DNA of 14,869 nucleotides from Pyrobaculum sp. (GTDB lineage Archaea > Thermoproteota > Thermoprotei > Thermoproteales > Thermoproteaceae), in assembly GCA_046293555.1 (NCBI GenBank), contig JBKBOT010000035.1, forward strand, positions 1-14,869, given 5' to 3'. How positions within the stretch are numbered: the stretch's first letter is position 1; every line of letters starts with the position of its first letter. Below are positions 1 through 14,452 of the stretch, one piece after another. Position numbers and translations under genes: made by a program. The notes beneath the pieces are model-generated. The model was not told the origin of the DNA. It was given only the letters and a program-made list of their open reading frames with translations, and ran no database searches.

Positions 1-23
1 AATACATAAAAAGCACAGGGACG

Positions 24-389
24 ATGGTAATTGCTGTCATAATGGTGATGATTTTACTAGTAGCGATTGTATATCTTCTCGGGCCACCGCCGCCACCGCA
101 GAAGAAACCTGACGTAACTACTAATACTGCCAAACCACAACAGATTAATATAACTATAGTCAAGCCTGTGTATATATCTAGTGGAGGGAAATTATACCAA
201 TGTATCCCAAGGGACAACAAGACGTATGCATGTGTAGAAGTACAACAATTACAACCACAGAGCTCTTCCGGCTGGGAGTGGGTTCTCGCGTATCTCATCT
301 TAAAAGATTTGATCGGTTCGGAGCCAGATGATCATGTTGTCTATAGAGATCGTGTTATCTATAGGACTCATACCGTTCGACGACGATAA
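24..389 (+). CDS. Membrane-anchored hypothetical protein
   Basis: N-terminal hydrophobic helix (VIAVIMVMILLVAIVYLL), poly-Pro linker, N-x-T sequons (NIT, NKT), a Cys pair and a second short hydrophobic patch (WEWVLAYLIL). Confidence 0.75.
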   Translation: MVIAVIMVMILLVAIVYLLGPPPPPQKKPDVTTNTAKPQQINITIVKPVYISSGGKLYQCIPRDNKTYACVEVQQLQPQSSSGWEWVLAYLILKDLIGSEPDDHVVYRDRVIYRTHTVRRR

Positions 390-403
390 TGGTTAGCGTA
401 AGA

Positions 404-411
404 TTTAAATA
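404..411 (+). promoter_or_regulatory. Archaeal TATA box (leaderless promoter)
   Basis: TTTAAATA starts 27 nt before ATG 431. Similar spacing at 2488 (ATG 2514), 3192 (ATG 3217), 4192 (GTG 4219), 9974 (ATG 10001), 14465 (ATG 14490) and, on the minus strand, 2253 (ATG 2228). Confidence 0.7.
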
Positions 412-430
412 CTTGTAGTTTTTTATATCC

Positions 431-1342
431 ATGGATACAAAGAGATTAGTTAGAGAGCTTGTGGAAAGCCCTGAGCTTGTGACTGCTGTCGATGTGGTTA
501 GAGAGTTAACAAAACGTGGTATGAGTATAAGAGTCGCACAAGAGTATGTACGTAAATATGGCGGCAGTAGATTTGTTAACATTGGCCGTATTGGTGTAAA
601 GAAAGAGTATGCAATACAACTACTGGCAGAAACCGCCTCGATGGTAAAAAGGCTGCTAGCAGAGAGGAGGAAAAAGAGGCTGACAACCACAGAGGTGTAT
701 AAACACCTATGCGGCAATAGGGTTATGACGAATTCTCAAAGCATATTGCTCGGCGGTTTGTTGAGAAAAGTCGCTGCATATAAAGGTATGAGTAGGGGGC
801 GTCATTACGTGTTTTCCTACAGCCATTTGGCGCAGTTCCCCGACATAGAGCCCGTCTTGTTGAAAAAAATCCTCTGCGGTGGGTCCATCGACTGTAACGA
901 AATTGCCGATGTGGTGAGAGAGGTCGCTTGGCGGCAAGATGTGGTAACCTCAATCGATGTTGTAAACATTATATCCAAAAGCCTCGGGGTTGGGGAAGAT
1001 CAAGTTCAGCCATGTGTTGTCATGCATTTGGCGGAGTTGGTCCAGGCGGGACGGTTCCACCCGTTGGGCGATGTGTTGGTCAAGAGGGAGTACGTGGGCC
1101 AGCTGTTAGTTGAGGCCGCGGCTGCCGTGAAGTTTGTGTTGCAAGGCGGCGTGGCACGGATGGAGGACGTGGCCAAGGCCTTGTGTGGAGGTACGGCGGC
1201 TAGGCTACAGACGTTGGAAGCACTCATAGACGTGTTTGCAGAAAGTAGGAGTGAGGACGGCAGCCGCCAGTTCCGCGTGGAGAGGTTTACATATATTCCA
1301 GACGGTGAGCCACAACTGCTGAGGAGTGTGGTATGTCTATAA
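431..1342 (+). CDS. Hypothetical protein with internal ~150-aa duplication, possibly tandem winged-helix DNA-binding domains
   Basis: The halves align by eye: LVRELV..ELVTAVDVV / VVREVA..DVVTSIDVV; VKKEYAIQLLAE / VKREYVGQLLVE; KHLCG / KALCG; FPDIEPVLLKKILC / IPDGEPQLLRSVVC. Confidence 0.8.
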   Translation: MDTKRLVRELVESPELVTAVDVVRELTKRGMSIRVAQEYVRKYGGSRFVNIGRIGVKKEYAIQLLAETASMVKRLLAERRKKRLTTTEVYKHLCGNRVMTNSQSILLGGLLRKVAAYKGMSRGRHYVFSYSHLAQFPDIEPVLLKKILCGGSIDCNEIADVVREVAWRQDVVTSIDVVNIISKSLGVGEDQVQPCVVMHLAELVQAGRFHPLGDVLVKREYVGQLLVEAAAAVKFVLQGGVARMEDVAKALCGGTAARLQTLEALIDVFAESRSEDGSRQFRVERFTYIPDGEPQLLRSVVCL

Positions 1343-2040
1343 CCGTCCTTGTTGGAGAGGGGGATGTAGCTGAGGTGTTGTGGGAGCGATATAACGCCAC
1401 GTTTTACATCCCTGCAGGCAGGTCTAGCCTTATGGCTTTGTATAACTTGTGGAAGTACGTAGGTGAGGATGGAAGCATAGCTGCCGAGGTGGTCGTGATG
1501 AGTTTGCCTGCGGCGGTGCAAACGTTTTACGAGAACTTAGACCGTCTGAAGGGAGAGGACGGCCCGTTTGTGTATATCGCGAGGGAGTTGGAGGACGTCA
1601 TGGGAGGTCCAGTTGATGTAATCGTGAAAGACGACATAACAACAATCCGCCACATGGGCAAGCCCATTTGGGGGGCCCCGCTTGTCGTAAGGGAGTTGGC
1701 CCCACTGTATCTTTACGTCAAAGAGCTTCTGAGGCCCGGCGTCAACCTCTCCGTAGAGTTCCCGGAGGCCAACCTACATCCATGTGTCCAAGTCAAAGTC
1801 GCCGAGGTTTTGGCCAAACTGGTTGAGAGTGGGGTCAACGTGGCTGTTGTAACACATGGAGAGGCCTTCCTATGGCGACTGTCACATTTGGCGAGGAGGG
1901 GTCTGAGGGATAAAGTGAAAGTATTTCAAATCAGGGGTGGACAGCTGGAAGAGGTTGACATAGATAACATCCCGACGCTTGACGAGGTGTATAACTGGCT
2001 GTATGACGAAAGCATCAAGCTGAGATACAAAAGGGAGTAG
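1333..2040 (+). CDS. Degenerate ABC-type ATPase (AAA_15/AAA_21-like), probably catalytically inactive
   Basis: Retains YIPAGR, RELAPL, VEFPEANLHP.VQ (canonical IEEPEAHLHP..Q) and VAVVTHG (canonical TTHS). The N-terminal ITVLVG strand is not followed by a GKS/T P-loop. Overlaps the upstream gene by 10 nt, with GAGGAG upstream. Confidence 0.75.
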   Translation: MSITVLVGEGDVAEVLWERYNATFYIPAGRSSLMALYNLWKYVGEDGSIAAEVVVMSLPAAVQTFYENLDRLKGEDGPFVYIARELEDVMGGPVDVIVKDDITTIRHMGKPIWGAPLVVRELAPLYLYVKELLRPGVNLSVEFPEANLHPCVQVKVAEVLAKLVESGVNVAVVTHGEAFLWRLSHLARRGLRDKVKVFQIRGGQLEEVDIDNIPTLDEVYNWLYDESIKLRYKRE

Positions 2041-2045
2041 GTTTT

Positions 2046-2228
2046 TTACCCAACGTCTCTCGCCCTCCCCACCTTCCCTAAAAATCGATGTACCCTGGCC
2101 CTTGTGTATGGAGATCTTGCAACCGCTACGAGAACCCTCTTTGGCGGTATCTCCTTCACTATTACGGTGTAGCTAGACGTCTCGAAGGTCTTTCGAGCCG
2201 CCACGTCATAAAACTTCAATTTGGGCAT
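2046..2228 (-). CDS. cc1: Crenarchaeal chromatin protein CC1 homologue (copy 1)
   Basis: KLKFYDVAARKTFETSSY.VI.K...AVARSPYT matches the CC1 pattern as I recall it (KLKFYDxKAKxxFETDxYEVIEK...FAVAKSPYTG). 60 aa, basic, own TATA box. Confidence 0.85.
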   Translation of the reverse strand: MPKLKFYDVAARKTFETSSYTVIVKEIPPKRVLVAVARSPYTRARVHRFLGKVGRARDVG

Positions 2229-2321
2229 GTCATATAGCTTGTAGATATTTAAAAACTTAATTCTGTGGTGAGACTTTTAAATTTGTTTGTTTTATATGGA
2301 TCACATCACAAGCTACATGCC

Positions 2322-2477
2322 ATGGGAACGCTTATATCGATCACGTCGTTGTTCGTAGCATGGCATTTCGCCACGTCCATCGTGGTGGCTCCCATCAGCA
2401 TGTTACCACCGCGTTGGCGGTATATATATCGTGAAGACTTACCCCAAATAGATTTTTTGTATTTTCGACATTTGTAG
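2322..2477 (+). pseudogene. Short or truncated paralogue of the downstream membrane protein
   Basis: GTLISITSLFVAW resembles GNLMFITALFVAW in 2514..2987, then diverges and stops early. The start is uncertain. Confidence 0.4.
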
Positions 2478-2513
2478 AAGAGAACTGTTATAAATACACT
2501 CCATATTAAGATC

Positions 2514-2987
2514 ATGGAAAGTGAAAAGAGTGTGGGATGTTCCAACAACGATTGTCTTCTGAGACTCGTCGTTGGAAACTTAATGTTTATTACGGCATTA
2601 TTTGTAGCTTGGCAGATGGTTAAAATTATTCTATTTGGAATTACATTGCCTATGTTAAGACCTGAAAAAGAGTGGTGGATCCCCATTATCGAGACAGAGG
2701 GTGGGGCCATATTCCCGGCGGCTACAATATTTCTTCTATCTGGTGTAAACATATATGCAATAAAGTTTACATACAGTAGGTGTGGCATAATGGCGTTTAT
2801 TGTGCCCATGCTATTTGTTATCTGTTCGATTGCATACCTTGTCGGCAAAGATTTTATATTGCTAGCCATAGGGGCAGCTGCAGGCTTTATGTATATAGTT
2901 CTGCTGTCGTCGGGTCTATACCACTACTGTCTAGATTGTAGCTGTACTAGAAGAGATGAAGTACAGCCTTTAGAGGGGGGGATATGA
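2514..2987 (+). CDS. Multi-pass membrane protein (about 4 TM), Cys-rich termini
   Basis: Four hydrophobic segments; TTATAAATA 26 nt upstream. Confidence 0.8.
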   Translation: MESEKSVGCSNNDCLLRLVVGNLMFITALFVAWQMVKIILFGITLPMLRPEKEWWIPIIETEGGAIFPAATIFLLSGVNIYAIKFTYSRCGIMAFIVPMLFVICSIAYLVGKDFILLAIGAAAGFMYIVLLSSGLYHYCLDCSCTRRDEVQPLEGGI

Positions 2988-3127
2988 TATGGAGAGTGAT
3001 TGGGTTGTTGGTGTTGTTAGCCGTAGCTGTTGGCATTTATACTAACGATTGGGAGTTTGTAGTCACAGTTATCGGGTCTCTAGTGGCTATAGGTTTGATC
3101 AAACAAGTAAGGGTTGGGCAGTTGTGA
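2984..3127 (+). CDS. Small 2-TM membrane protein (47 aa, not in ORF track)
   Basis: My translation: MIWRVIGLLVLLAVAVGIYTNDWEFVVTVIGSLVAIGLIKQVRVGQL*. ATGA overlap with the upstream stop and a G-rich SD-like stretch. Confidence 0.7.
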   Translation: MIWRVIGLLVLLAVAVGIYTNDWEFVVTVIGSLVAIGLIKQVRVGQL

Positions 3128-3138
3128 TCTTCAACCTA

Positions 3139-3160
3139 CAAAACAGATAGTTTTTTTGTA
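3139..3160 (+). terminator. Possible oligo-T terminator within a weak inverted repeat
   Basis: TACAAAA...TTTTGTA arms with a T7 run, just after the membrane-protein operon. Confidence 0.35.
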
Positions 3161-3216
3161 AATATTTTTGCCTCTTGTCGTATGTAACTTATTTAAACGT
3201 ATGTATATTTAGAGTC

Positions 3217-4188
3217 ATGACAGTGATATACACGCCGGGACACAACTTGGTTACAGATACGTTGATTATACATGGTGTAGTTAAGTACATATCTGTGCTT
3301 GGGGTAAAAAACGCAGTCGTGGAGAGGGTGGGCGAGAGGTATAGAGTTGAGGCGGAGGGTGTGGGTAGTGGGAGGGTGGAGTTTGTTGAGCCCATCGTCA
3401 GAGCTATAAACGTCTATGAGGAATATGGTGATGCCAGGTTGTTAAAGGGCACTGTCACGTATAAGCTCATCCGTGGGGATATAGCGATGGGTGCGATGGG
3501 GCGGCTGCATGTGTTTAAAGCCGGGTTGACGTCTCTCTCTCCCAGCTGGCTGGAGGCGTTTATCGAGAACCATCATTGTGATGGGAAACACGTCCTGCCG
3601 CCGCACCTGTCTGCGGTTTTCAACCTTAGCGGCGAGCGGGGCGTATGTGACGTATGTTTCACCTTTGCAAACCTGGGCTTTCTCTACGGCGCGACTGTAG
3701 CCGTAATGAAGAAGCCGGGGAGGCGCGATGTGGTATACATGGTGCCTACGCCCCGTGGGAGGGCGGCGTGGGAGGATGTCTTCTTGATGCAACAAGTGGC
3801 AAGCTTGTTGGAAATATCTGTGGGGGACGTACCCACCCTGGCGGTGCCCGTGGTGTGGCTTTCGTGGGGCGCTGCGATGGATATCGTGGATGGGCCGTTC
3901 GATCTGTTGGTATGGCGCGTGGAGTCCATCAGGGGGCAGCTGAGGGTTATGGATTGGCACATCTTGGATCTGACCAAGCTTACAGACGTCGTTGTGGAGC
4001 TGTGGGATGGGACTACCGACTGGCCCAGATGTGTCAAGGTCACGCTCTATGGAAATCCACATGTGTTGGCCGATCTTGCTAACTATGCGACCCAAGGCGG
4101 CGATGGGCGTAAGGTGGCTCAAGGCCTGCTGTCTGGAAAAAACACGGCTAGGTTCTGCGCCGGGGCTGTGGAGGTGTTAGCTAAGTGA
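3217..4188 (+). CDS. cas8a2: Stand-alone, divergent type I-A CRISPR large-subunit homologue (Cas8a2/Csa4-like)
   Basis: N-terminal IYTPGHNLVTDTLIIHGVV and central VCDVCFTFANLGFLYG resemble Csa4/Cas8a2 motifs as I recall them (YTPGH...D.LI..G; CxxC..A.LG). Start moved to ATG 3217 because TTTAAAC lies 25 nt upstream. Confidence 0.65.
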   Translation: MTVIYTPGHNLVTDTLIIHGVVKYISVLGVKNAVVERVGERYRVEAEGVGSGRVEFVEPIVRAINVYEEYGDARLLKGTVTYKLIRGDIAMGAMGRLHVFKAGLTSLSPSWLEAFIENHHCDGKHVLPPHLSAVFNLSGERGVCDVCFTFANLGFLYGATVAVMKKPGRRDVVYMVPTPRGRAAWEDVFLMQQVASLLEISVGDVPTLAVPVVWLSWGAAMDIVDGPFDLLVWRVESIRGQLRVMDWHILDLTKLTDVVVELWDGTTDWPRCVKVTLYGNPHVLADLANYATQGGDGRKVAQGLLSGKNTARFCAGAVEVLAK

Positions 4189-4218
4189 TAATTTATATGT
4201 GATCTCTAATTCGACCTC

Positions 4219-4527
4219 GTGGCGATGAGATATGTTCACAAGATGGGCGATGTTCTTATCGATGTTGTTGAAAGATATTACCCGGAGGCTGCAGAGGAAT
4301 ACAGGCAATATGTAAAAAACGTGACGAGGGTTGCGGATATGTTGTTTAGGAGGGGGCGGGTGGATGAGGCCATGACGTATATACAGGCGTTGAGGCAGAT
4401 GTCGCTTGACGTCATAAACTCTTTAGATATAGATCCCAACGAGAGGGAGCTGTTAAAACGGGATATAGATGGCTACTTTGAAAACGTGGTGAGGGAGCTG
4501 GAGAAAAAAGCCCGGCCGGTTCTATAG
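4219..4527 (+). CDS. Small alpha-helical hypothetical protein
   Basis: Charged amphipathic helices; TTTATATG 27 nt before the GTG. Confidence 0.8.
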   Translation: MAMRYVHKMGDVLIDVVERYYPEAAEEYRQYVKNVTRVADMLFRRGRVDEAMTYIQALRQMSLDVINSLDIDPNERELLKRDIDGYFENVVRELEKKARPVL

Positions 4528-4776
4528 GTTCTTCAAAGCGTCGGCATATTTTTTCACAACCTCCTGCGGCATCTCTATCCCCATCTCCCTTGCCGTGACG
4601 TCTATAATGTTGTATATAACTTGTAGCTTCACCTTAGTTTTTTTTCCGCTTTTTGCCTCGTTTAACAGAGTTAGAAATATGTGACGATATTGTCTTACAA
4701 GACGTCTGTGTGGGGTATCTCTAAGAGCTTTTAGAAAGGCGTTTATGTACTCCTCAGCTACCTCATATACATCCAT
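4522..4776 (-). CDS. Small alpha-helical hypothetical protein
   Basis: 84-aa ORF with protein-like composition, upstream TTTAAATA, 6-nt convergent overlap with 4219..4527. Confidence 0.8.
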   Translation of the reverse strand: MDVYEVAEEYINAFLKALRDTPHRRLVRQYRHIFLTLLNEAKSGKKTKVKLQVIYNIIDVTAREMGIEMPQEVVKKYADALKNL

Positions 4777-4799
4777 GTCATATAATTTTATTTAAAAAG

Positions 4800-5138
4800 T
4801 TAGTTCATCAATGGTCTACCTCTAAACGGGGGGAATCTGTCGTGTAGGAGATCTATCATCTCTCTATATCTCTTAAACATCTCCATAGGTGGGTCCCTTC
4901 CGGCGAAGCCGCGCATTATATTTCTATATATATGAAACGCCACATGTAGATGTTTGACGGCCTCCTGTGGGTCATGTATCGACAAATTTATGGCGTTGTC
5001 CATAGACCTGTTTATTACGGCTATATACTCGTCTAGGAATTCTCTGTCTACAACGTCCTGGAGCTCCTCTTTAAAGTTTCCAATCATCTCTATTTTGAAT
5101 TCTTGAAGACTCTGTTGTATGTCTGGGCGACGTATCAT
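4800..5138 (-). CDS. Small alpha-helical hypothetical protein
   Basis: 112-aa ORF, amphipathic helical pattern, AT-rich upstream region. Confidence 0.8.
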   Translation of the reverse strand: MIRRPDIQQSLQEFKIEMIGNFKEELQDVVDREFLDEYIAVINRSMDNAINLSIHDPQEAVKHLHVAFHIYRNIMRGFAGRDPPMEMFKRYREMIDLLHDRFPPFRGRPLMN

Positions 5139-5186
5139 ATGTTAGAATTTAGAGATACATATATACATTCATTTTTAAGATGATAT

Positions 5187-5693
5187 ATGCCTATAGAAAA
5201 AATCTCAGTAAATAGCCACATTGCACGTGTTAGCGACGTATATCCATTGTTGTGGCTTGGAGAGAACGGCTATGCGATAACCCGCTACGGGAGGCTATAT
5301 ATGCTCGACGGCGAGCCGCTTGGCGTGGAGTATGTGGCAAAGCTGTCGGTCCCACAACGTTTCAACCCGGGCGTCTACATAGTTGGAGGTGGCGTAAAGC
5401 TCGGAGTCTACTACGTGTTGAATGTAGTTAAGGCTGTACGCGATGCGGTGAAGTATATAAACGTGGGGGAGACGCTGGCTGCGGCTGGACTGAAGCGTAC
5501 TACACATGTGGCTATCGTGCAGCACATCGAGACGCCGTATCCCCACACAGTCGATTTACGATATGTAAAAACGCTATTGTCGAACCCCCCGGTTAGATAT
5601 ATGGTGGCGTGTGGGGAGGTATACAAAGTGGTTGGGTGGGTGGATGGCCTAGACCAAATGTTTGCGTGTCATACAGACAACGGTCGTATATAA
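5187..5693 (+). CDS. Hypothetical protein (V/Y/G-rich, alpha/beta)
   Basis: Longest ORF between two AT-rich intergenic gaps; no recognised motif. Confidence 0.75.
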   Translation: MPIEKISVNSHIARVSDVYPLLWLGENGYAITRYGRLYMLDGEPLGVEYVAKLSVPQRFNPGVYIVGGGVKLGVYYVLNVVKAVRDAVKYINVGETLAAAGLKRTTHVAIVQHIETPYPHTVDLRYVKTLLSNPPVRYMVACGEVYKVVGWVDGLDQMFACHTDNGRI

Positions 5694-5743
5694 TATCTCT
5701 AGTTGTCGATATGGACCTTTTTAAATAGACTTTTTTATATATC

Positions 5744-6562
5744 ATGGACCCAATTCAGATCCCAAAGTTTTTAAACATGCATTTTCATAAATCTATGTGC
5801 GATCACAAGCCGATACAGATAGATGGCCAGTATGTATGTGTTGAATGCGGCGAGGTGTTAGGCCAAGTGGTGGACTTGCGGGGCGAGTGGCGTGACCCCG
5901 CATTGAGTCGCACCGGCCTCCTGTATGCCAACACCCCCATTGCGGCCACCTTCATGACGTTTATCAGCCACAAGCCCGGCAGAGATGCAGCCACGCTTAT
6001 AGCCACACAGAGGGCCGGCCTCTACGTGTCGGTAAAGGAGAGGCGGATTGTAAACGTGGCTGTGGAGATAGAGCGTCTAGGCAACATCATGGGCATGCCT
6101 CGACACATACGCCAACGTGCAAAAGAGCTCTACATACAGGCCCTAAACCGCGGCGATGTCCGTTGTAACGCCAAGGCGTCTGCAGCAGCTGCGCTTTATT
6201 TAGCCCTAAAGACCGCCAAGATGCCAAGGAGTTTTGACGAGTTTAAACACATAGAACATACGGGCAGGTGTCTAAACAGGCTAGCAGCAGCGTTGGGCAT
6301 GAAGGTGGGGCCGACAGATAGCGTCTACTACCTCGCAAAGCTTGCAGAGGCGTTGTCGCTCCCAACGAATGTAGTTAAGGCGGCTAAGGAATACATAAAG
6401 TCGGCCAGGAGAAGCGGCCGGACGGCCAAGGTGATTGCTGCTGCGGCTGTCTATAAGGCGGTGAATGAGATGGGGCTCGGGCTGTCCATATCCACTATTG
6501 CCAAGACCGCTGGCACATCGCCAAGCTCCATAAAGGAGGCGGTGGCAGCGATGTGGAAGTGA
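5744..6562 (+). CDS. tfb: Transcription initiation factor IIB (TFB) homologue, divergent
   Basis: Zn ribbon CDH...YVCVECGEV; B-reader-like GEWR..RTG; two cyclin repeats (AAAALYLALK...PRSFDE; SGRTAKVIAAAAVY); C-terminal HTH (ISTIAKTAGTSPSSIK). Alternative start at ATG 5795. Confidence 0.92.
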   Translation: MDPIQIPKFLNMHFHKSMCDHKPIQIDGQYVCVECGEVLGQVVDLRGEWRDPALSRTGLLYANTPIAATFMTFISHKPGRDAATLIATQRAGLYVSVKERRIVNVAVEIERLGNIMGMPRHIRQRAKELYIQALNRGDVRCNAKASAAAALYLALKTAKMPRSFDEFKHIEHTGRCLNRLAAALGMKVGPTDSVYYLAKLAEALSLPTNVVKAAKEYIKSARRSGRTAKVIAAAAVYKAVNEMGLGLSISTIAKTAGTSPSSIKEAVAAMWK

Positions 6563-6840
6563 TGACATATAGCGTTGTGACTAACTGTACCAGGGAGAAG
6601 CTAAGCCGCCCGGCGCCGGCGAGGGAGTTGTATAGGGGATCCTCTGTGAGAAACATCGTAAAGGCGGTAGATGAGGCGAGGGCGGGGGGCGTGGATGTGA
6701 AGCTATACATAATGCCCGCGGTATGTGAGCGGCGGGATGTCTATGTGTTATCGCCATATAGACCTCACTGCGGCGTTTGGATAAAAACCGGCAATTTTGA
6801 CAAACATCTTGTAGTCAAGAGGCTTCTCCTAAATACCTGA
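6562..6840 (+). CDS. DUF6884-like small protein, apparently shortened
   Basis: VVTNCTREKL..PAPARELYRGS resembles the CxxxK...PAxxLYxG motif. TGATG coupling to the tfb stop favours start 6562 over 6553. Confidence 0.5.
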   Translation: MTYSVVTNCTREKLSRPAPARELYRGSSVRNIVKAVDEARAGGVDVKLYIMPAVCERRDVYVLSPYRPHCGVWIKTGNFDKHLVVKRLLLNT

Positions 6841-6865
6841 TTTTTTTAAATCTAATTTTATCTTC

Positions 6866-7963
6866 ATGCGATACTCACTCCCGATCATAATCGCCATATT
6901 GGCGGTAGTCATATATCTGTCTCCCCATCAACACCACCACGTTTATAGTACTGTTTATAGTACATCACCCCCTCAAAACACTACTCCTTTGTTACAACCT
7001 TATGAGCGTGTAAACTCATCGATAATAGAGGACGTCATACAATTCTACCGCTCTAAGAATTTGACAACTCAATGTGGAAAGATAGAGGTGTATTTACGCC
7101 CGGATTTGAGGGGTTACGTCGGCATTGCTGAAGGCTGTACTATATACATAAAGCGTGTAGAGCCTTACGTCATCGCCCACGAGATTGCCCACTTGTTTAT
7201 CCCATTCCGCGGCGATTGGAGGCAGGAGTCGGTGGCTGACGGCATCGCGTTGGCATATCTACACGCCAAGGGTTACGATGTGCCGCGACGTAATGTCGAC
7301 GTGTATTTCACCAAACGGTTGTATGAGAGAAGTCCTTTCGACGCAAAAGAGGAGGAGTGGTACGATTATGCCGCGCCTTTTGCCTGGGTGGCACAAAACA
7401 CGACAGACTGGCGTTGGGCATATCAGCCGGAGGCAGTGTACTTACGTTTTCTTGAGGCGCTTAAGGATTGTGTTACGATTTTTGGCGTCAAGTATTGTCC
7501 GGAGTACACAGAAGTACGTAATGCTTACAACGAGTCCTTCAAGATGGCGCCATATACGGCGCGGTACTTCCGCATAAAAACGTCAGGGGATTTCGTTATC
7601 GTTAGTGACGGCTTTATTGAACGTATCTATCCACCGTCTGTCACAATTGCATATATTGATACTATTGGGAAAATACGTCGAATTGAGATAAGTTACGTCT
7701 ACATCCACGCCACAGCGTTTGTTGCCAAGATTAACGACGTCTACGTCACTGTGGTGTACTTAGAGGAGTCTAAAAACGGCAGACCCTACAAACCGGTAAA
7801 CGGTATACGTGATATAAACGACACTAGCATGATGTTTACAAACGGTATTGCTATATTAAAGACGTGGGAGCGTCCACAAGCTGTGACAATTTATAACAAA
7901 ACGGTAGAGGTTAGGCTTGCGGAACATATTTCAGCGGAGAAAGACAAGATCTGTGTGTCGTAA
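6866..7963 (+). CDS. Secreted or membrane-anchored zinc metallopeptidase (gluzincin-like)
   Basis: N-terminal signal/anchor helix; VIAHEIAH (HEXXH) followed by WRQESVAD (candidate third-ligand Glu); many N-x-S/T sequons (NTT, NSS, NLT, NES, NDT, NKT). Confidence 0.8.
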   Translation: MRYSLPIIIAILAVVIYLSPHQHHHVYSTVYSTSPPQNTTPLLQPYERVNSSIIEDVIQFYRSKNLTTQCGKIEVYLRPDLRGYVGIAEGCTIYIKRVEPYVIAHEIAHLFIPFRGDWRQESVADGIALAYLHAKGYDVPRRNVDVYFTKRLYERSPFDAKEEEWYDYAAPFAWVAQNTTDWRWAYQPEAVYLRFLEALKDCVTIFGVKYCPEYTEVRNAYNESFKMAPYTARYFRIKTSGDFVIVSDGFIERIYPPSVTIAYIDTIGKIRRIEISYVYIHATAFVAKINDVYVTVVYLEESKNGRPYKPVNGIRDINDTSMMFTNGIAILKTWERPQAVTIYNKTVEVRLAEHISAEKDKICVS

Positions 7964-7965
7964 CC

Positions 7966-8541
7966 CTACTCCACCTCTCTATCTCTTTCCCTTTTGCGCC
8001 TAGAGTAGCGCATAAGTAACTTCTTGGCGCGGTCAAGCAACTCGTTTGAATCCACCTCTTTTTCTAGTTCCTTAAGGTATTTTAAGGCATCTCTGGCAGA
8101 TTCCACCATTATTTTTTTCACCTCCTCATCGCCGTCCACCCCTCTTGCGAGGTGGAAGTTTTTAAAGTGGTATATGAAAAGCGCTGTTGCCTTGGGGTTT
8201 GCTGCGAACAGTCTGTGGAGAGATTTGACAACGTCGCGTTTCGACATATCTAGACCCTCGGCAAATACCTCGACGGCATATTCTCCAAGCGTCTCGTGGT
8301 CTATGTATATATAGTCAACCCAACGGGGGCCTCCATACAGCCTCATGGCCAGGCCGAATGTCCTATAGTCGTCAACCAGATTTCTATGTCTTCTCGATTC
8401 AAGATCCTCGTTGTCCTCCACAACTCTGACCCTTCTCTTGGCGGGGGTCTTCACCTCCTCCACCTCTGGCCCTCTTTCTTCCACCTCTAACTCCTCCACC
8501 TCTGGCTCTCTTTCCGCTCTTGTCTTAACCATGCGACCCAT
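7966..8541 (-). CDS. Hypothetical protein with charged, low-complexity N-terminus
   Basis: Start moved from 8670 to ATG 8541, which has TTAAATATA 26 nt upstream (8532 and 8553 are alternatives). E/R-rich N-terminus, helical core. Confidence 0.75.
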   Translation of the reverse strand: MGRMVKTRAEREPEVEELEVEERGPEVEEVKTPAKRRVRVVEDNEDLESRRHRNLVDDYRTFGLAMRLYGGPRWVDYIYIDHETLGEYAVEVFAEGLDMSKRDVVKSLHRLFAANPKATALFIYHFKNFHLARGVDGDEEVKKIMVESARDALKYLKELEKEVDSNELLDRAKKLLMRYSRRKRERDREVE

Positions 8542-8759
8542 GGAGGTGGGCATGTGGATATATTTAACAATTCTACGTGTCTGTAATCTTGGCGTGTGTG
8601 AGATAAAATTTGGGAAAAATAGTATATATATCCATACGATCTTTTGTATATGGCAACACGACGGAAACAAAAAAGAAATAGGAGGAGAGGTTATTGATTT
8701 GGCGCCACTCTATAGTTTGTTATAAACATTCCCTTTTTTATTTATATATTGTTTGAAAC

Positions 8760-9101
8760 ATGGAGATGGAGTTTGTGGATGTAAAGAGGGTGGTAGAACT
8801 GTATATATCTGGCATATCGGTGAACAACATCGCTAACATGTTGGGAGTTGGCACCAAGACGGTGTCTAAGATCTTGCGGAGACATGGCATATATGCCAAA
8901 CCTAAGGTTGTGGTTGAAGTGGAGTGTGTGATGTGTGGCGAGATGGGTTTTTTGACCCCCCTAAGGAGGGGGATATACGTAACACATATAAAAAACGGAA
9001 GGGTTACGCGTTGCTACGTTGGGGACGTGTCTACAGCCATGCGGAGATACCCATCCCTGCGGAAGTACTTCGGCAGTATTTTGAGCTCCGCCACGCCTTG
9101 A
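8760..9101 (+). CDS. HTH plus Zn-finger-like putative DNA-binding protein
   Basis: HTH: VVELYISGISVNNIANMLGVGTKTVSKILRRHG. C-terminal CVMCGEMG.L...IYVTH...RCYVG (CxxC..H..C). TATA spacing favours ATG 8766. Confidence 0.8.
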   Translation: MEMEFVDVKRVVELYISGISVNNIANMLGVGTKTVSKILRRHGIYAKPKVVVEVECVMCGEMGFLTPLRRGIYVTHIKNGRVTRCYVGDVSTAMRRYPSLRKYFGSILSSATP

Positions 9102-9922
9102 CTACATGACAGCTCGCGCTCCAGAGCGCGGAGCACGCCCCAGAGGTGGGGCGCTCTGCGTAACGTTAACATCACCTCGCCGCGGGTCATGTTAAACGTT
9201 TTGGCTAGCGATGTGTAGAGATCGCCGTCATATATCGCACAAAGCTCTCGCCTCAATTGTTCCAACGCCCTGGCGTTGATGTATGTGCCGGCATATTTCA
9301 CGAAGGTCCCCTGCAGATCGTTAAGTGCATCGTATGGCAGTTTTGTCTCTATGAAGAATACAGGCAGATTATGTAATACAGAATTATGTAGCTTCCAGCC
9401 TCCCCCCATCTTTGTCTTCTCCCCTTTCCTCTTCTTGCTCCCACTCTTAACCCTCTTTCTTTTTTCCCTGTCAGCTTGGGTCACCGAGGCGAGTTTTAGT
9501 ATTACCCTAGGCGTGATTCGAGGGACCTCTATTGGGCCTAATATATATTCATCGCCGTTGGTATAGTGTTTTTTCACGACGTAGTATATAACACGTGTGA
9601 TGTGTGGCTTTGGCGGTAACTCCATGTGGAAGAGCCTTGTGAAGACCTTTCTGAATTTGCCAAAGTGATAATACTTAATGCCGCCCTCTTTTAGCACATA
9701 GCCAACCTCTGCCACCAATCTATCGTATAGATCGCGACGTATGTAGACGTTGTTTGCGTTGACGAAGTGGTCCAACAAGCGACACATCCTAGCGGCGTAG
9801 AAGACCTCGTTGTAGTTAAGGCCCATCAGGCGACAGAAGTCTGTCAACACGACGGCATTTTGGAGGAGTTTCTCCATGGCGTTGCATCTCTTTGTGACCC
9901 TGTCTGTTTGGCCATGTGGCAT
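9014..9922 (-). CDS. Basic two-domain hypothetical protein, possibly nucleic-acid binding
   Basis: 302-aa ORF with a K/R-rich linker (REKRKRVKSGSKKRKGEK); TTTATAAA about 25 nt upstream; 88-nt convergent overlap with 8760..9101. Confidence 0.75.
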   Translation of the reverse strand: MPHGQTDRVTKRCNAMEKLLQNAVVLTDFCRLMGLNYNEVFYAARMCRLLDHFVNANNVYIRRDLYDRLVAEVGYVLKEGGIKYYHFGKFRKVFTRLFHMELPPKPHITRVIYYVVKKHYTNGDEYILGPIEVPRITPRVILKLASVTQADREKRKRVKSGSKKRKGEKTKMGGGWKLHNSVLHNLPVFFIETKLPYDALNDLQGTFVKYAGTYINARALEQLRRELCAIYDGDLYTSLAKTFNMTRGEVMLTLRRAPHLWGVLRALERELSCSQGVAELKILPKYFRRDGYLRMAVDTSPT

Positions 9923-10000
9923 GTTTTTATAACAATGTTTTATAAAGACTGCTGCCTTCTATGTTATGTAATATTTATATATAACGATGTGCATCCACAT

Positions 10001-10171
10001 ATGACAAAACTACAATTCTACGACGTCAAGGCAAAGAGGAAGTTTGCCACAAGTAGGTACAAAATAGTCAAAAAGAGGACCAAGAGCGGCGTTAGAACAT
10101 TCGCTGTGGCGAAATCGCCATATACTGGGATAACCGCGTATCGGATCGTCGGAGGGCGGGAGAGGGGTTAA
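10001..10171 (+). CDS. cc1: Crenarchaeal chromatin protein CC1 homologue (copy 2)
   Basis: MTKLQFYDVKAKRKFATSRYKIVKKRTKSGVRTFAVAKSPYTGITAYRIVG. This is the C-terminal 56 aa of track ORF 9767..10171; TTTATATA lies 27 nt before ATG 10001. Confidence 0.88.
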   Translation: MTKLQFYDVKAKRKFATSRYKIVKKRTKSGVRTFAVAKSPYTGITAYRIVGGRERG

Positions 10172-10419
10172 TGGATCGTTTCGAGGCGGTCGTTGCGACC
10201 GCCGTAGCCATATCTGTCGCCTTTTTTCTCATGGCTCCGTGGAGCGTCCTTACCGCATGCTACCCAATGCAACCGCTTTTGGGGGGCGCGATTGTCTACG
10301 CCATCTTTTCCGTGCTACATGCAAAATATGGAGAGAGGGTGGAGGGGGTTTTCACAAAATTGTTCTTTGTGTTTTTAGTCGCCATGTGGATACTCACCCT
10401 TGCGCCGCCTGTATGTTAA
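10171..10419 (+). CDS. Small 3-TM membrane protein
   Basis: Three hydrophobic segments; TAATG coupling to cc1 copy 2. Confidence 0.75.
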   Translation: MDRFEAVVATAVAISVAFFLMAPWSVLTACYPMQPLLGGAIVYAIFSVLHAKYGERVEGVFTKLFFVFLVAMWILTLAPPVC

Positions 10420-10675
10420 CCATATCATAAATAAGCTGTCTTAAACACAGCCACAGCCTCCCCTTGACGCACAACCTCCTCAACTTTTCCACAGCCTCGA
10501 CGTTGAGAGTGATGGTATGCGATCTGGTGCCCTTGGCCCGCGGCGCCTCTGTGAGGGGTTCTGTGCGGGACATGATGTAGCTCTCGACGCATTTGGACAC
10601 GTTTTCGCCACAGAGCTGTCGGAGTTTCTGCCACACGTCGTCTGGCACTGAGACGAAGGCGTTTACTGTAGACAT
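10394..10675 (-). CDS. Tandem ribbon-helix-helix-like protein (2 units)
   Basis: AFVSVPDDVWQKLRQLCGENVSKCVESYI and HTITLNVEAVEKLRRLC...LCLRQLI. Start set to ATG 10675, overlapping the upstream gene end. Confidence 0.65.
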   Translation of the reverse strand: MSTVNAFVSVPDDVWQKLRQLCGENVSKCVESYIMSRTEPLTEAPRAKGTRSHTITLNVEAVEKLRRLCVKGRLWLCLRQLIYDMVNIQAAQG

Positions 10676-11199
10676 GTCTGCCGCAGAAGCGCGTTTACAC
10701 ACTTGCCGGCCCACTGTTTAAACGTGGAGATCTCGCATTTCTCTACAAGCATCTCCACATGGCGTGGCGATAGGTACAACCTCCTGGGGGCACCGCGCCA
10801 GTTTAGATACGACATGTCTACCCTCTCCGCGGCCTCTATCAGCTCCTCGACGAAGTATTGTAGCTTCTTTCCACCACGTCGCCTGTCGACAGCCCTCCAC
10901 TCAGCCAGCGGGAGCCTCACGGAGATGTGGGCCATCTTCTCGACGGTTGTTTGAAGTCCACGTAACGCCGTGTAGACCGCGGCGGATATACATTTGCTAT
11001 ATGTGGTCCACCCGGCGCAGAGCTCCTCCACCCTCTTTACATCCTTTATACGGACAATTATGGGAGTGCTGTCTACAGGCGGTGCCTCATATGGCTGCGT
11101 GGCCTCGGCTAGGAGCTCCTCAAGACATCGCCTCTTACCGACACACCAAAGTGCAAGTTTTTTGAGAGCCTCCCTGTCTAGAAACATATGTGTAAGCAT
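10663..11199 (-). CDS. Multi ribbon-helix-helix-like protein (about 4 units)
   Basis: Repeated strand-helix-helix units, e.g. HISVRLPLAEWRAVDRRRGGKKLQYFVEELIE and IIVRIKDVKRVEELC...SKCISAAV. Confidence 0.6.
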   Translation of the reverse strand: MLTHMFLDREALKKLALWCVGKRRCLEELLAEATQPYEAPPVDSTPIIVRIKDVKRVEELCAGWTTYSKCISAAVYTALRGLQTTVEKMAHISVRLPLAEWRAVDRRRGGKKLQYFVEELIEAAERVDMSYLNWRGAPRRLYLSPRHVEMLVEKCEISTFKQWAGKCVNALLRQTCLQ

Positions 11200-11239
11200 G
11201 AAAATAAAAAATGTTTAAAAGAGACACGCGGATAGATAT

Positions 11240-11908
11240 ATGTCTAACAACCCCGCCCAGAGCTACACAGAGATGATGGCTGCGTACCGTAGGTACATAA
11301 GACAGCCCGTCGAAATGTCGAAAAACTACTCCGAGATGATGGCTGCGTACCAACGCAGGGAGAAGATAGAGGCTGAAAAAAACATCAAGAAGAGAGATGA
11401 AACTCCAAAAAACGTCGCAGCCTACAGGATGTTGAAAGGAGATAAAGACATGGAGGACGGTGAGAGGGAAGAGAAGAAGAAAAAGAGGGGGGACTTCCAA
11501 GTCCTGCGGATTGGAGTAGTTCCATGGGGCGTGAGGTATGAGGGCAAGGTATATACATTCAGGGGGATTGCGGATACGAAGTACGTAGACCTTCCAGACG
11601 GCAGGAGGGTCTATGCGATATCAAGCGGTATTAACAACTGGCGTATAGAGGTGGTTGATCCCAGGGAGCTTGGCTACCGGGTCCAGTTTATAGGCGATAA
11701 AGAGGTTCACTACGTGGAGCCCGGCATGGCGGTACAGATAGAGGGCGGAAGCCCATCATACCTGATATATGACGGCAAAAAAGAGTTGGTCAAGAAAGTT
11801 GGCGATATCTACTTCAAAGAGCTCCCAGACGGGCGGGTTGTCCAAATCCGCAAGAGTGGCGCCAGAAGATGGGTGGTGAAGATCGATCGACAGAGGGCCC
11901 TTGAATAA
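11240..11908 (+). CDS. Hypothetical protein with N-terminal helical repeats and a duplicated beta-rich domain
   Basis: SYTEMMAAY / NYSEMMAAY / NVAAY; two copies of Y(E/D)GK...LPDGRxV...SG...W. Confidence 0.85.
   Translation: MSNNPAQSYTEMMAAYRRYIRQPVEMSKNYSEMMAAYQRREKIEAEKNIKKRDETPKNVAAYRMLKGDKDMEDGEREEKKKKRGDFQVLRIGVVPWGVRYEGKVYTFRGIADTKYVDLPDGRRVYAISSGINNWRIEVVDPRELGYRVQFIGDKEVHYVEPGMAVQIEGGSPSYLIYDGKKELVKKVGDIYFKELPDGRVVQIRKSGARRWVVKIDRQRALE
11270..11351 (+). repeat. 19-bp exact direct repeat, 63-bp period
   Basis: GAGATGATGGCTGCGTACC at 11270 and 11333. Confidence 0.9.
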
Positions 11909-11935
11909 TATATTAATCTATATTATGTATGGTAT

Positions 11936-14452
11936 ATGGATAGGTGGTGGGAGCATGTAGGCCTTTCTATCATCAACAAGCCGAGAGAAGATACCCATGC
12001 CGTCAAGCTGGAGGTCAAAAAGTCGGAAGAAGTAGCCGGCAGGTGGTGGGAGAGGATAAAGCCCGGCGGCCAAGATGGGGGGGCTGGCCGGATGTACACA
12101 CCGCTGCCATCCACCATCTCGGTGAAGCTGCCGGAGCCAGAGAGGCCTTCGGTCAGCGCCCCCGGCGTGGGGAGAGTAGAGAGGCCTCCGAAGGAGCTAC
12201 CGCCACATCCCACATCCACAGAGGAGGCGCCGAGGCACGGCAAACCGACCGCCACACAGCCGGAGTCCACAAAGGAGAGGCCAGATAGGCCCCCAGACAC
12301 AAAACAAAAAGAGGAGCCCAAACCGGCTCCAAGGCTTGAGCCTCCAAAGTCAGAACCTGGGCCGCCACCAAAAGAGGAGTCTCCAAAGAGGCCTCCGGAC
12401 CACATCGTAAGTCCGCCACAGCCTCCAAAAGAGCCTCTAAAGCCGCCCCCTCCACCTAGGCCGGTAGAGCCTCCGATAAAAATACCGCCCTTACATCCAC
12501 CAAGGTCAGAGCCTAGACCAGAGCCTAAGCCGGTATCATCACAGCCGCCGGCTTCAAAACCGGTTCAACCATCTATACAACAAAATAGGACGGAGTCACA
12601 GAGGTCGAGGTCTGAGGGGGGAGATAAATCCAGTGGGCATGGCGGCGACCACAACCGCGTGGTGGATCCATATAGCGACTTCGAGACTTGTGTTAAACAT
12701 TACGGTGCACAACACTGTGAGGACTACTTTGTAAAGAGAAAGATGGGAGAAAACAAGAAGAGGGAAGAGCGGGATCGGTCGCCACAAGTCCAACCACAGC
12801 CTACACCACCACCTACACCACCACGACCACAGCCGTCAAGACCGCCGCCAAAAAACCTCATAGATGGAGAGTACACAACCGTGCCGCAGTTGGAGCGGAA
12901 CAAGGCCGTGTCGTCTAAACAGCCATCTACATCGCCACAGTCCGAACAAGCGTCGTCTAAACAGCCGCCCCCTACCCCCGCGTTTAACCGGCCGAGGAAT
13001 TTGATAGATGGAGAGTACACAACCGTGTTACAACTTGAACGCAATAAGGACACACAGACGTCCAAACCAATGACTTCAAGCCAGCGACCCTCACAACCCA
13101 AGCCTGAGCCGTCTAGGGGGAGTGCGGAGTCGCCCCCCACACCTATGTTCAACCGTCCACGTAATTTAATCGACAACGAAGTTGTTACGGTGCCACAGTT
13201 GGAACGTAACAAACAGCCTCCGACGAGACAACAACAATTGCCAACACCTCCACAACAACCTCAGCCTCCAAAAGAGCCACCAAAGCCAACACCTCCACAA
13301 CCTTCTCCACAACCTCAAATGAGAGAATCAAATATCCCAACTAGGCCTCCGGACCATGTCGTAAGTCCAACACAGCCTCCACCGCCTCCATCTCCACCTC
13401 CAAAGACGGAGCCTCCAAAGACGACAACTACTCAGTCCAGGGCTGAACAACAGAAAACTACAACGACAACCACAGCCGCCAGGCCTCCGGATTACGTCGT
13501 AGGACCACCTCCTCCACCTAGTCCTCCAAAGAAGGAGGAGAAGCCTAAGGAAACTAAGCCGGAGCCTCCAAAGCCATCGCCTCCTCCACCTCCACAGCCA
13601 AAGACAGAGACAAGACCTCAAACACAAACAACGACAACCACAGCCGCGAGGCCGGTGGACTACATCGTAGGGCCTCCATCTCCGCCGAAAACAACTAGTC
13701 AACCTCAGCCCAAGGCTGAGACGGAGCCAACACAGCCTCCATCTCCACCTCCAAAGACGGAGCCTAAGCCGGAGCCTCCAAAAGAGCCTCCAAGGAGGCC
13801 GTCGGATTACATCACAGGTCCGCCACAGCCAAGGCAGGAGGTTCCCACGCGACCGCCTGTACCTATGTTCAACCGGCCCAGAAACCTTATAGACAGCGAA
13901 GTTGTTACGGTACCACAACTGGAGCGGAATAAACAAACCCAACCGCCACGGCACTCTCTACCTCCACAACCACAAAGGCCTACGACGCCGCCCAAGGCTG
14001 AGCCACAGCCGAGGTCTACGACACAGCCGCCTGTCCCAGCGTTTAATCGGCCTAGGAACCTTATAGACAACGAGGTGTCTACGGTGCCACAACTTGAACG
14101 TATCCGTAGCGTGGCTGCTACAAACAGAGTAAGTCAAACCACACGGCCGGCAGTCGCTCAGCCGCCTCCAAGGCAAGAGGTTCAAAAACAACAACCTGCG
14201 GTACCTATGTTCAACCGTCCACGTAATTTAATCGACAACGAAGTTGTTACGGTGCCACAGTTGGAACGTAACAGAGATGTGTCGACACCATCTGCACAAC
14301 CCCCGGCGTCTAAACCGGAACCACCTAGAGAGATACCACGTGCCCCAGAGCCGCCCCCTGCCCCCGCATTTAACCGGCCAAAGAATTTGATAGATGGAGA
14401 GTACACAACCGTGCCGCAGTTGGAGCGGAACAAAAGGATACGGTATATATAA
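11936..14452 (+). CDS. 838-aa Pro/Gln/Thr-rich, largely disordered repeat protein
   Basis: Uninterrupted ORF with 2x RWWE at the N-terminus, 7x (FNRP)(R/K)NLIDxExxTVxQLER and 5x RPxD(H/Y)xx(S/G)P. No signal peptide or TM segment seen. Confidence 0.92.
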   Translation: MDRWWEHVGLSIINKPREDTHAVKLEVKKSEEVAGRWWERIKPGGQDGGAGRMYTPLPSTISVKLPEPERPSVSAPGVGRVERPPKELPPHPTSTEEAPRHGKPTATQPESTKERPDRPPDTKQKEEPKPAPRLEPPKSEPGPPPKEESPKRPPDHIVSPPQPPKEPLKPPPPPRPVEPPIKIPPLHPPRSEPRPEPKPVSSQPPASKPVQPSIQQNRTESQRSRSEGGDKSSGHGGDHNRVVDPYSDFETCVKHYGAQHCEDYFVKRKMGENKKREERDRSPQVQPQPTPPPTPPRPQPSRPPPKNLIDGEYTTVPQLERNKAVSSKQPSTSPQSEQASSKQPPPTPAFNRPRNLIDGEYTTVLQLERNKDTQTSKPMTSSQRPSQPKPEPSRGSAESPPTPMFNRPRNLIDNEVVTVPQLERNKQPPTRQQQLPTPPQQPQPPKEPPKPTPPQPSPQPQMRESNIPTRPPDHVVSPTQPPPPPSPPPKTEPPKTTTTQSRAEQQKTTTTTTAARPPDYVVGPPPPPSPPKKEEKPKETKPEPPKPSPPPPPQPKTETRPQTQTTTTTAARPVDYIVGPPSPPKTTSQPQPKAETEPTQPPSPPPKTEPKPEPPKEPPRRPSDYITGPPQPRQEVPTRPPVPMFNRPRNLIDSEVVTVPQLERNKQTQPPRHSLPPQPQRPTTPPKAEPQPRSTTQPPVPAFNRPRNLIDNEVSTVPQLERIRSVAATNRVSQTTRPAVAQPPPRQEVQKQQPAVPMFNRPRNLIDNEVVTVPQLERNRDVSTPSAQPPASKPEPPREIPRAPEPPPAPAFNRPKNLIDGEYTTVPQLERNKRIRYI
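12848..14436 (+). repeat. Dispersed coding repeat, 7 copies of about 66 bp
   Basis: Copies at about 12848, 12983, 13148, 13868, 14042, 14210 and 14369. 13141-13211 is identical to 14203-14273 (71 bp); 12860-12903 is identical to 14390-14433 (44 bp). Confidence 0.95.

Follow-up and report, generated by a model that had tools for sequence, protein, structure and literature searches.

How does a contig of a Pyrobaculum sp. assembly come to carry a row of host-like genes whose key motifs are altered, and what would such genes do there? The window, that is the whole stretch of DNA analysed here, is the entire contig C35 (14,869 bases), binned in an archaeal assembly of 145 contigs and 1.75 Mb with an estimated completeness of 96% (C numbers denote contigs of one assembly, by default this one, and G numbers genomes of relatives). 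It holds about two dozen plausible genes according to the listing of open reading frames (ORFs) and family scans. An initial annotation had pointed to five altered genes between positions 1333 and 6840, mostly with separate promoters, and had proposed that a mobile element collected host-derived mimics targeting defence, chromatin and transcription. We favour, with a probability of roughly 60%, a reading of C35 as part of a virus- or plasmid-like element, hosted by a hyperthermophilic archaeon with a type I-A system, which is under attack by CRISPR (short palindromic repeats, clustered and regularly interspaced) and would carry a set of anti-defence and takeover genes with a Cas8a2 copy as a decoy for Cascade. 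The five genes were all present, and one of them has a second copy further downstream:

1333..2040, + strand: degenerate AAA_15/21 (PD-T4-4_A-like) ATPase homologue of 235 amino acids (aa), overlapping the upstream ORF 431-1342
2046..2228, - strand: CC1-like small basic protein, copy a, 60 aa (tblastn to C9, C23, C66, C52 and C19)
3217..4188, + strand: stand-alone Cas8a2/Csa4 homologue, 323 aa (ORF 3175-4188, likely start ATG 3217)
5744..6562, + strand: divergent TFB/TFIIB homologue, 272 aa (Pfam TFIIB)
6562..6840, + strand: internally deleted DUF6884 homologue, overlapping the TFB stop
10001..10171, + strand: CC1-like protein, copy b, 56 aa (tblastn)

The contig is targeted by CRISPR spacers of its own assembly. 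We took 297 spacers from the 23 contigs of the assembly with at least two repeat copies, and oriented them by the ATTGAAAG end of the repeat, which we take to be the convention; the small contigs C71 and C72 are CRISPR arrays. Four of the 297 spacers matched C35, three of them with a CCN protospacer adjacent motif (PAM):

4098..4144, - strand: protospacer 1, 47/47 identical to a spacer of array C71, 5' PAM CCG, inside the span of the Cas8a2-like gene
7204-7254: protospacer 2, 50/51, PAM CCC, inside a gene for a 365-aa protein with a HEIAH motif
8801-8842: protospacer 3, 40/42, PAM CCC, inside a gene for a protein with a helix-turn-helix (HTH) and a Cys pair
5870..5913, + strand: partial protospacer 4, 39/44 to a spacer of array C98, without CCN PAM, inside the TFB gene

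The incomplete match of the last one indicates that its spacer points to a related variant of this TFB gene. Over the whole assembly, the direct 5' flank of the spacer-target matches was CCN in 21 of 31 cases and TCN in six (27/31 together), as one would expect for a PAM of type I. Contigs of the probable source run also contain the same spacers with flanking repeats, and the other targeted contigs of the assembly are C19, C21, C25, C50, C52, C61, C66 and the end of C29. A DNA search of 40 relatives revealed no synteny with C35; four of the 40 gave short matches, all at 6573-6807 in the DUF6884 gene. Because spacers of its own genome match it with a PAM and none of the 40 relatives is syntenic with it, this separate contig is, as the initial annotation had proposed, a mobile element and not core chromosome. 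The host population has met this element and immunised against it. At its right end, within a Pro-rich repeat gene, C35 shares an overlap of 66 identical bases with the end of C61. The size of the element is 14.9 kb or more, with a probable continuation in C61. The whole window had no megablast match among deposited records of phages and archaeal viruses, and tblastn against these records returned nothing for the Cas8a2-like, TFB, 365-aa, 302-aa, HTH and CC1-like proteins. The window exhibited no terminal repeats and no Rfam families, and tRNA genes were found neither on it nor on six sister loci.

The Cas8a2-like ORF matched Pfam Cas_Csa4 (PF09703) with an E-value of 8.9e-30 and 104.6 bits (cut-off 25) and PADLOC Cas8a with 8.5e-25; its score with NCBIfam TIGR01914 was 101.3 bits, under the cut-off of 232.5. 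Aligned end to end, the protein and a relative's operon-encoded Cas8a2 were 31% identical (107/341, E 1e-50), and the nearest Cas8a2 relatives of the window protein in the 40 genomes showed 31-33% identity. In the three closest relatives the gene lies within csa5-cas7-cas5-cas3'-cas3''-cas8a2 operons, a context assigned by Pfam for G012 and by gene order and sizes for G002 and G020. On C35, Pfam and PADLOC family scans found no other cas gene, and the host's own type I-A genes are dispersed over C57, C93 and C13. Still present in the window protein are the N-terminal YTPGH..D..HG motif (T7, P8, G9, H10, D15, H20, G21), a CxxC motif (C145, C148), the conserved Trp and the C-terminal motifs. It lacks the EG[RY]...YGKY block, which in our alignment A1 is missing from the copies C35, C52b, C50a, C50b and C79 and present in all 17 other rows, namely 16 canonical proteins and C52a.

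In a tree of 25 proteins, the window copy formed a clade with C52a, C52b, C50a, C50b and C79 (99/98 support), with end branches of 0.73-1.2 compared to 0.03-0.77 for the relatives' operon copies. From 1.84 billion representatives, a full HMMER search returned 60 matches at E <= 0.001, and the enlarged tree showed a split, with a support of 97, between nine non-canonical or short copies and 15 canonical ones. The nine include P0047, on a contig of 24,514 bases and thus exactly as long as C21, and two proteins from other metagenome assemblies, P0020 and P0038. These last two (309 aa on a 5960-base contig and 274 aa on a 3088-base contig, respectively) have neither an EG[RY] block nor a TPGH motif. 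The window copy, on a long branch, is nested among operon copies of the same family, and this nesting supports the view that the gene was derived from a host. Csa4 was detected in 17 of 120 genomes of the class and on several contigs in this assembly only; the 16 other genomes have one gene each, which in one case is broken across two contig fragments. Among 5.8 billion proteins, word-based searches yielded none nearer than 31% to the window Cas8a2; for the short form C50b they returned nothing beyond the entry of C50b itself and this assembly's C79 copy. No match to the Cas8a2-like protein was obtained in plasmids (tblastn) and no sequence relative of it in the PDB; scans of IMG/VR with this protein, the 365-aa protein, alignment A1 or P0020 found nothing, nor did genome and metagenome scans with P0020. 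In the literature searched, supplementary files apart, we came across no description of a Cas8a2/Csa4 homologue as a viral gene or as an anti-CRISPR.

Short Cas8a2-like genes also stand in tandem on C50 (2055-2891 and 2858-3733) and on C52 (3641-4480 and 4680-5459), and C124 holds a further C-terminal fragment. The sister contigs C50, C52 and C21, which bear Cas8a2 copies, are themselves spacer targets.

The TFB ORF matched Pfam TFIIB (PF00382) in two stretches with 8.5e-14, and both cyclin repeats are kept and align with those of the host TFBs. The protein as a whole is extremely divergent. Its scores were 86.9 bits with NCBIfam NF001658 (cut-off 384) and 13.9 bits with Zn_Ribbon_TF (cut-off 29); in the zinc ribbon the first CxxC is lost (it reads SMCDH) and the second CxxC alone is kept, the B-reader reads RGEWR and the C-terminal recognition helix is altered. 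The divergence announced by the initial annotation is thus evident, with an end branch of 4.63 substitutions/site against a median of 0.018. Since a branch of this length found no supported placement in the tree, the host derivation claimed for the whole set is supported for the Cas8a2, DUF6884 and CC1-like genes and may or may not hold for the TFB. The genus members searched mostly had two TFB matches per genome; there are four here, the extra ones being on C35 and C21. Extra TFB genes on long branches were also seen in relatives, at C80 of G010 (L051 1453-2244; 4.13) and at C106 of G028 (L062; 1.96), and these may also be borne on mobile elements.

Over a stretch of 50 aa, CC1-like copy a showed 50% identity to small basic proteins encoded on the large contigs C9 and C23 (E about 3e-12), and a TATA box is located at about -27 before it. 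Both copies were 50-55% identical to conserved small proteins on the large contigs of the host, a resemblance that supports a host-derived origin. No profile for CC1 exists in Pfam or NCBIfam, and the PDB gave no sequence relatives of these proteins. The small basic protein of the initial annotation is where it was said to be and resembles host proteins; its name, CC1, is one that we use as a presumed identity, after the published description of a 6-kDa basic protein with several gene copies. The second copy, at 10001-10171, lies outside the 5.5 kb to which the set had been confined.

The ATPase-like ORF had no Pfam match, scoring below every Pfam cut-off, and matched PADLOC PD-T4-4_A with 1.3e-11. 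Over 221 aa its identity to the C-terminal part of a full-length AAA_15/AAA_21 paralogue encoded on C42 was 41%; this paralogue scored 64.9 bits with AAA_15 and 62 bits with AAA_21; a second full-length paralogue lies on C25, a spacer-targeted contig. Relative to the C42 protein, Walker A has changed from GKNNTGKS to GEGDVAEV, with loss of the lysine and a remnant of the P-loop strand left, Walker B from VEEPE to VEFPE, with loss of the glutamate, and about 125 internal residues are gone, so that the gene was rightly called motif-dead. In three relatives the I-A operons are directly followed by a conserved AAA_15/21-like ATPase (L021 8859-9755(-), L022 8237-9169(-), L024 10131-11087(+)) of 298-318 aa, with mutual identities of 37-44%, which is not among the genes in the Pyrobaculum cas tables of PMC3396285. 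This ATPase following cas8a2 was considered as the source of the window copy and rejected, with E-values of 3e-5 to 0.014 compared to 2e-48 for the C42 protein.

The DUF6884 ORF scored 16.9 bits with Pfam PF21818 (cut-off 30), profile positions 5-35 alone being matched. Over 90 aligned codons it was 71% identical to the host gene C5:14020-14475, a true DUF6884 (66.6 bits), relative to which 61 internal codons are deleted in frame; this resemblance supports a derivation from the host's own gene, and the shortening seen in the initial annotation is confirmed. In the retained parts, the ratio of nonsynonymous to synonymous substitution rates (dN/dS) against the host gene was 0.18-0.23. The gene is probably co-transcribed with the TFB gene.

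As to promoters, a TATA-like hexamer was found at -36..-17 before 12 of the 23 ORF starts, compared to 1.45 +/- 1.18 expected at random positions (maximum 7 in 2000 draws). Seven of the 12 ORFs between 1333 and 6840 have such a hexamer, in agreement with mostly separate promoters. TTTAAA-type boxes stand upstream of the Cas8a2, TFB and CC1 genes and of most small ORFs.

Gene sets similar to that of the window are present on the sister contigs. C21, of 24.5 kb and matched by several spacers, carries PCNA (both domains), an nSTAND3 NTPase, an AAA ATPase, a dCTP deaminase, a TGT-like gene just under its cut-off (25.4 bits), a TFB with an intact Zn ribbon at 21229-22080(+) and six helical paralogues in a row, each of about 180 aa, together with a degraded Cas8a2-like gene at 17757-18491(-), which at 19.4 bits is below the Pfam cut-off. 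C52 has a weak PCNA-like gene and a CC1-like gene beside its two Cas8a2 copies. The heavily spacer-targeted C19 (30 kb) encodes a Csa1 (Cas4')-like protein at 17125-17952, 67.5% identical to the Csa1 of a relative. Borrowed informational and defence genes of host type are a trait common to these elements.

From these genes we infer how the element might act. Its copies of host genes, mostly each behind its own TATA box, would serve as an anti-defence and takeover set. The Cas8a2 copy would enter host Cascade or sequester its subunits, giving non-productive complexes and thus a dominant-negative anti-CRISPR. The TFB copy might redirect the host RNA polymerase to promoters of the element or compete with host TFB, and the CC1-like copies could coat the DNA of the element. 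As for the dead ATPase and the deleted DUF6884, they may be decoys that poison host systems at the level of subunits, or recent remnants. The TFB, CC1-like, PCNA-like and dead-ATPase copies suggest that such elements, about which little is known, use borrowed parts to remodel transcription, DNA packaging and defence of the host, and it is in this qualified sense that we would keep the idea of mimics targeting defence, chromatin and transcription. A wider proposal, that there is a lineage of elements with shortened, fast-evolving Cas8a2 genes, single or in tandem, which poison or re-programme host Cascade within a takeover set of TFB, PCNA, CC1 and dead ATPase, is more tentative, and the odds are rather against it.

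Several observations weigh against the reading of C35 as a free element with a working takeover set. No capsid, replicase or other replication, or integrase gene was recognised on C35 with Pfam and PHROGs, and the element may be a virus or a plasmid. A perfect spacer with its PAM coexists with the element, and the two may come from different cells of the metagenome. C52a keeps the EG[RY] block, so that the Cas8a2 clade could partly reflect host paralogy; this copy may be the host operon's own gene, continuing the operon that breaks off at the start of C93. The 365-aa protein is 75% identical (tblastn, 328 aa; 70% over 365 aligned codons) to a paralogue at C29:18535-19671(-) which adjoins ordinary chromosomal genes, and an integrated state or an exchange with the chromosome is accordingly possible; a relative of this element may be integrated at the end of C29. 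The dN/dS between these two genes was 0.14-0.20, and spacers match both copies. The ATPase-like ORF has no TATA box of its own, and the DUF6884 deletion takes out the core of the domain. Finally, in contigs of the probable source run the word depth was 4-6.5 over window positions 1-1545 and 15-16 over 1516-12479, and a loose end at 1516 leads to a different upstream sequence with an in-frame stop in the ATPase reading frame; a 30-mer of this alternative upstream sequence was not found elsewhere in the assembly. Given the change of depth and the alternative join, the left 1.5 kb, including the degenerate P-loop, could stem from a minority variant or from a chimeric join. Codons 1-61 of the ATPase-like ORF, with what remains of the P-loop, fall in the low-depth part; taken with the missing promoter and the stop in the alternative sequence, this fits a remnant at a recombination joint.

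The last points bear on the alternative that survives best, although we hold it to be unlikely, namely that the host-like genes are passive cargo acquired by illegitimate recombination and being lost, the ATPase and DUF6884 copies being pseudogene remnants and the Cas8a2 and TFB copies relics. The ATPase copy, deprived of Walker A, the Walker B glutamate, about 125 residues and a TATA box and with its 5' part at the depth change, would be expected of such decay, as would the loss of 61 core codons from DUF6884 and the degraded Cas8a2-like gene of C21. It is opposed by the uninterrupted frames of Cas8a2 (323 codons, at 31% identity) and TFB (272 codons, on a 4.63 branch) behind TATA boxes, by the dN/dS of 0.18-0.23 in the retained parts of DUF6884, and by the recurrence of stand-alone Cas8a2 copies on several targeted contigs, twice in tandem. 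The selection on DUF6884 and the intact Cas8a2 and TFB frames with their TATA boxes indicate that the set as a whole is not decaying neutrally. The description of open frames with changed motifs (EG[RY] block of Cas8a2, first CxxC of the TFB ribbon, Walker motifs of the ATPase) applies, with intact frames for Cas8a2 and TFB; the claim that the set is not in decay stands for these genes, and the ATPase and DUF6884 copies may be decaying remnants.

A distinctly less probable alternative grants the Cas8a2 copy a function of another kind. It would replace the host large subunit in a working Cascade and change its recognition, for example of the PAM, with the outcome that the element is spared or that host CRISPR is turned on competing elements. 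In type I CRISPR systems the large subunit reads the PAM, and the conserved N-terminal, CxxC and C-terminal motifs kept in the window copy would agree with such a role, as would the presence of several diversified paralogues on elements which occur alongside and are likewise hit by spacers. In 2014 the PAM reader of type I-A had yet to be identified (PMC4141822). The loss of a block common to every canonical Cas8a2 compared argues against this exchange of subunits, and so does the contig itself, on which no CRISPR repeat, mini-array or solitary repeat unit was found. Very improbable, in our estimate, is that C35 is a variable chromosomal island, an integrated element or a mis-binned contig, its extra Cas8a2 genes being host paralogues. 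In favour of this are the end of C29, where the 365-aa homologue and a Thr/Pro-rich gene of similar kind adjoin chromosomal genes, the possible continuation of the C93 operon in C52a and the want of a hallmark virus or plasmid gene. Against it stand PAM-correct spacers that target this contig and its sisters, the missing synteny in the 40 relatives and the single Csa4 gene of all 16 other Csa4-bearing genomes of the class; moreover, even when integrated the element would count as mobile.

The other genes of the window are the following:

2514..3127, + strand: two small predicted membrane ORFs of 157 and 47 aa, no family match
4219-4527, + strand: small helical orphan ORF, A/T-rich box upstream
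4522-4776, - strand: small helical orphan ORF, A/T-rich box upstream
4800-5138, - strand: small helical orphan ORF, A/T-rich box upstream
5187..5693, + strand: orphan ORF of 168 aa, weak paralogue on C26
6866..7963, + strand: membrane-anchored HEIAH-motif protein, 365 aa, paralogue at the end of C29
8760..9101, + strand: HTH and Cys-pair protein, 113 aa, paralogues on C19, C21, C50 and C52
11936..14869, + strand: Pro-rich repeat protein of 838 aa, then the start of a second one running off the contig

The Atlas search with the 168-aa orphan gave only scores below 0.9, on a poor model. The HTH and Cys-pair protein matched weakly the model of Cbp1, a CRISPR repeat-binding protein (22.6 bits, cut-off 140), and its C21 paralogue matched weakly a PSV_ORF131-like domain of Pyrobaculum spherical virus (23.3 against 27); we take both as leads only. 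The 838-aa protein contains several copies each of a FNRPRNLID..E..TVPQLERNK unit and a RPPDY/HVVGP unit, and similar proteins are encoded on C61 (L030) and at the end of C29. In this Pro-rich repeat region, contigs of the source run showed a length variant which skips 1270 bases (12487 to 13758).

How does this gene set compare with known systems? With PD-T4-4 subunit A and the AAA_15/AAA_21 (OLD/ABC-type) defence ATPases, the ATPase copy shares homology over its C-terminal two thirds and differs by the loss of Walker A and of the Walker B glutamate and by its internal deletion. TFB genes on crenarchaeal viruses are already annotated, for instance in the rudivirus genome maps of bioRxiv 10.1101/2020.01.16.907410. 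The window TFB is like them a TFIIB-fold protein on an archaeal mobile element, with a match to the PHROG phrog_20431 (2.7e-20), and differs in the lost ribbon CxxC, the changed helix and the lack of a tblastn match in the virus records. CC1 of Thermoproteus tenax is described as a small (6-kDa) basic DNA-binding protein (PMC4200833, PMC3189178), for which this organism has several genes (PMC3189178); the window copies, small and basic with 56-60 aa and also more than one, differ in being encoded by an element, and the likeness is one of description and not of reference sequence. Compared with the Cas8a2 of the type I-A Cascade of T. tenax, the window copy exhibits full-length homology, the N-terminal and CxxC motifs and the Trp, but it is outside a cas operon, on a CRISPR-targeted element, without the EG[RY]...YGKY block and on a long branch. 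In vitro reconstitution of the type I-A Cascade is possible (PMC4141822), which makes the decoy idea directly testable. A near full-length Cas8a2 copy on an element targeted by the host's type I-A system is a concrete candidate for such a test, with paralogues on sister elements and two relatives in other metagenomes. According to a 2024 review (PMC11656645), very few anti-CRISPRs derive from Cas proteins, a rarity that it calls an enigma, and the Cas-derived or Cas-mimicking ones on its list include AcrIF3 (a mimic of a Cas8f domain), viral Cas4 and phage dCas9. The window Cas8a2, as a candidate anti-CRISPR, would differ from these as a sequence-homologous, near full-length type I-A large subunit, unlike AcrIF3, which is a small structural mimic and not a homologue. 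If the wider proposal of a lineage of elements with shortened Cas8a2 genes that poison or re-programme host Cascade is true, these copies would be the first anti-CRISPRs with a genuine sequence homology to a Cascade large subunit.

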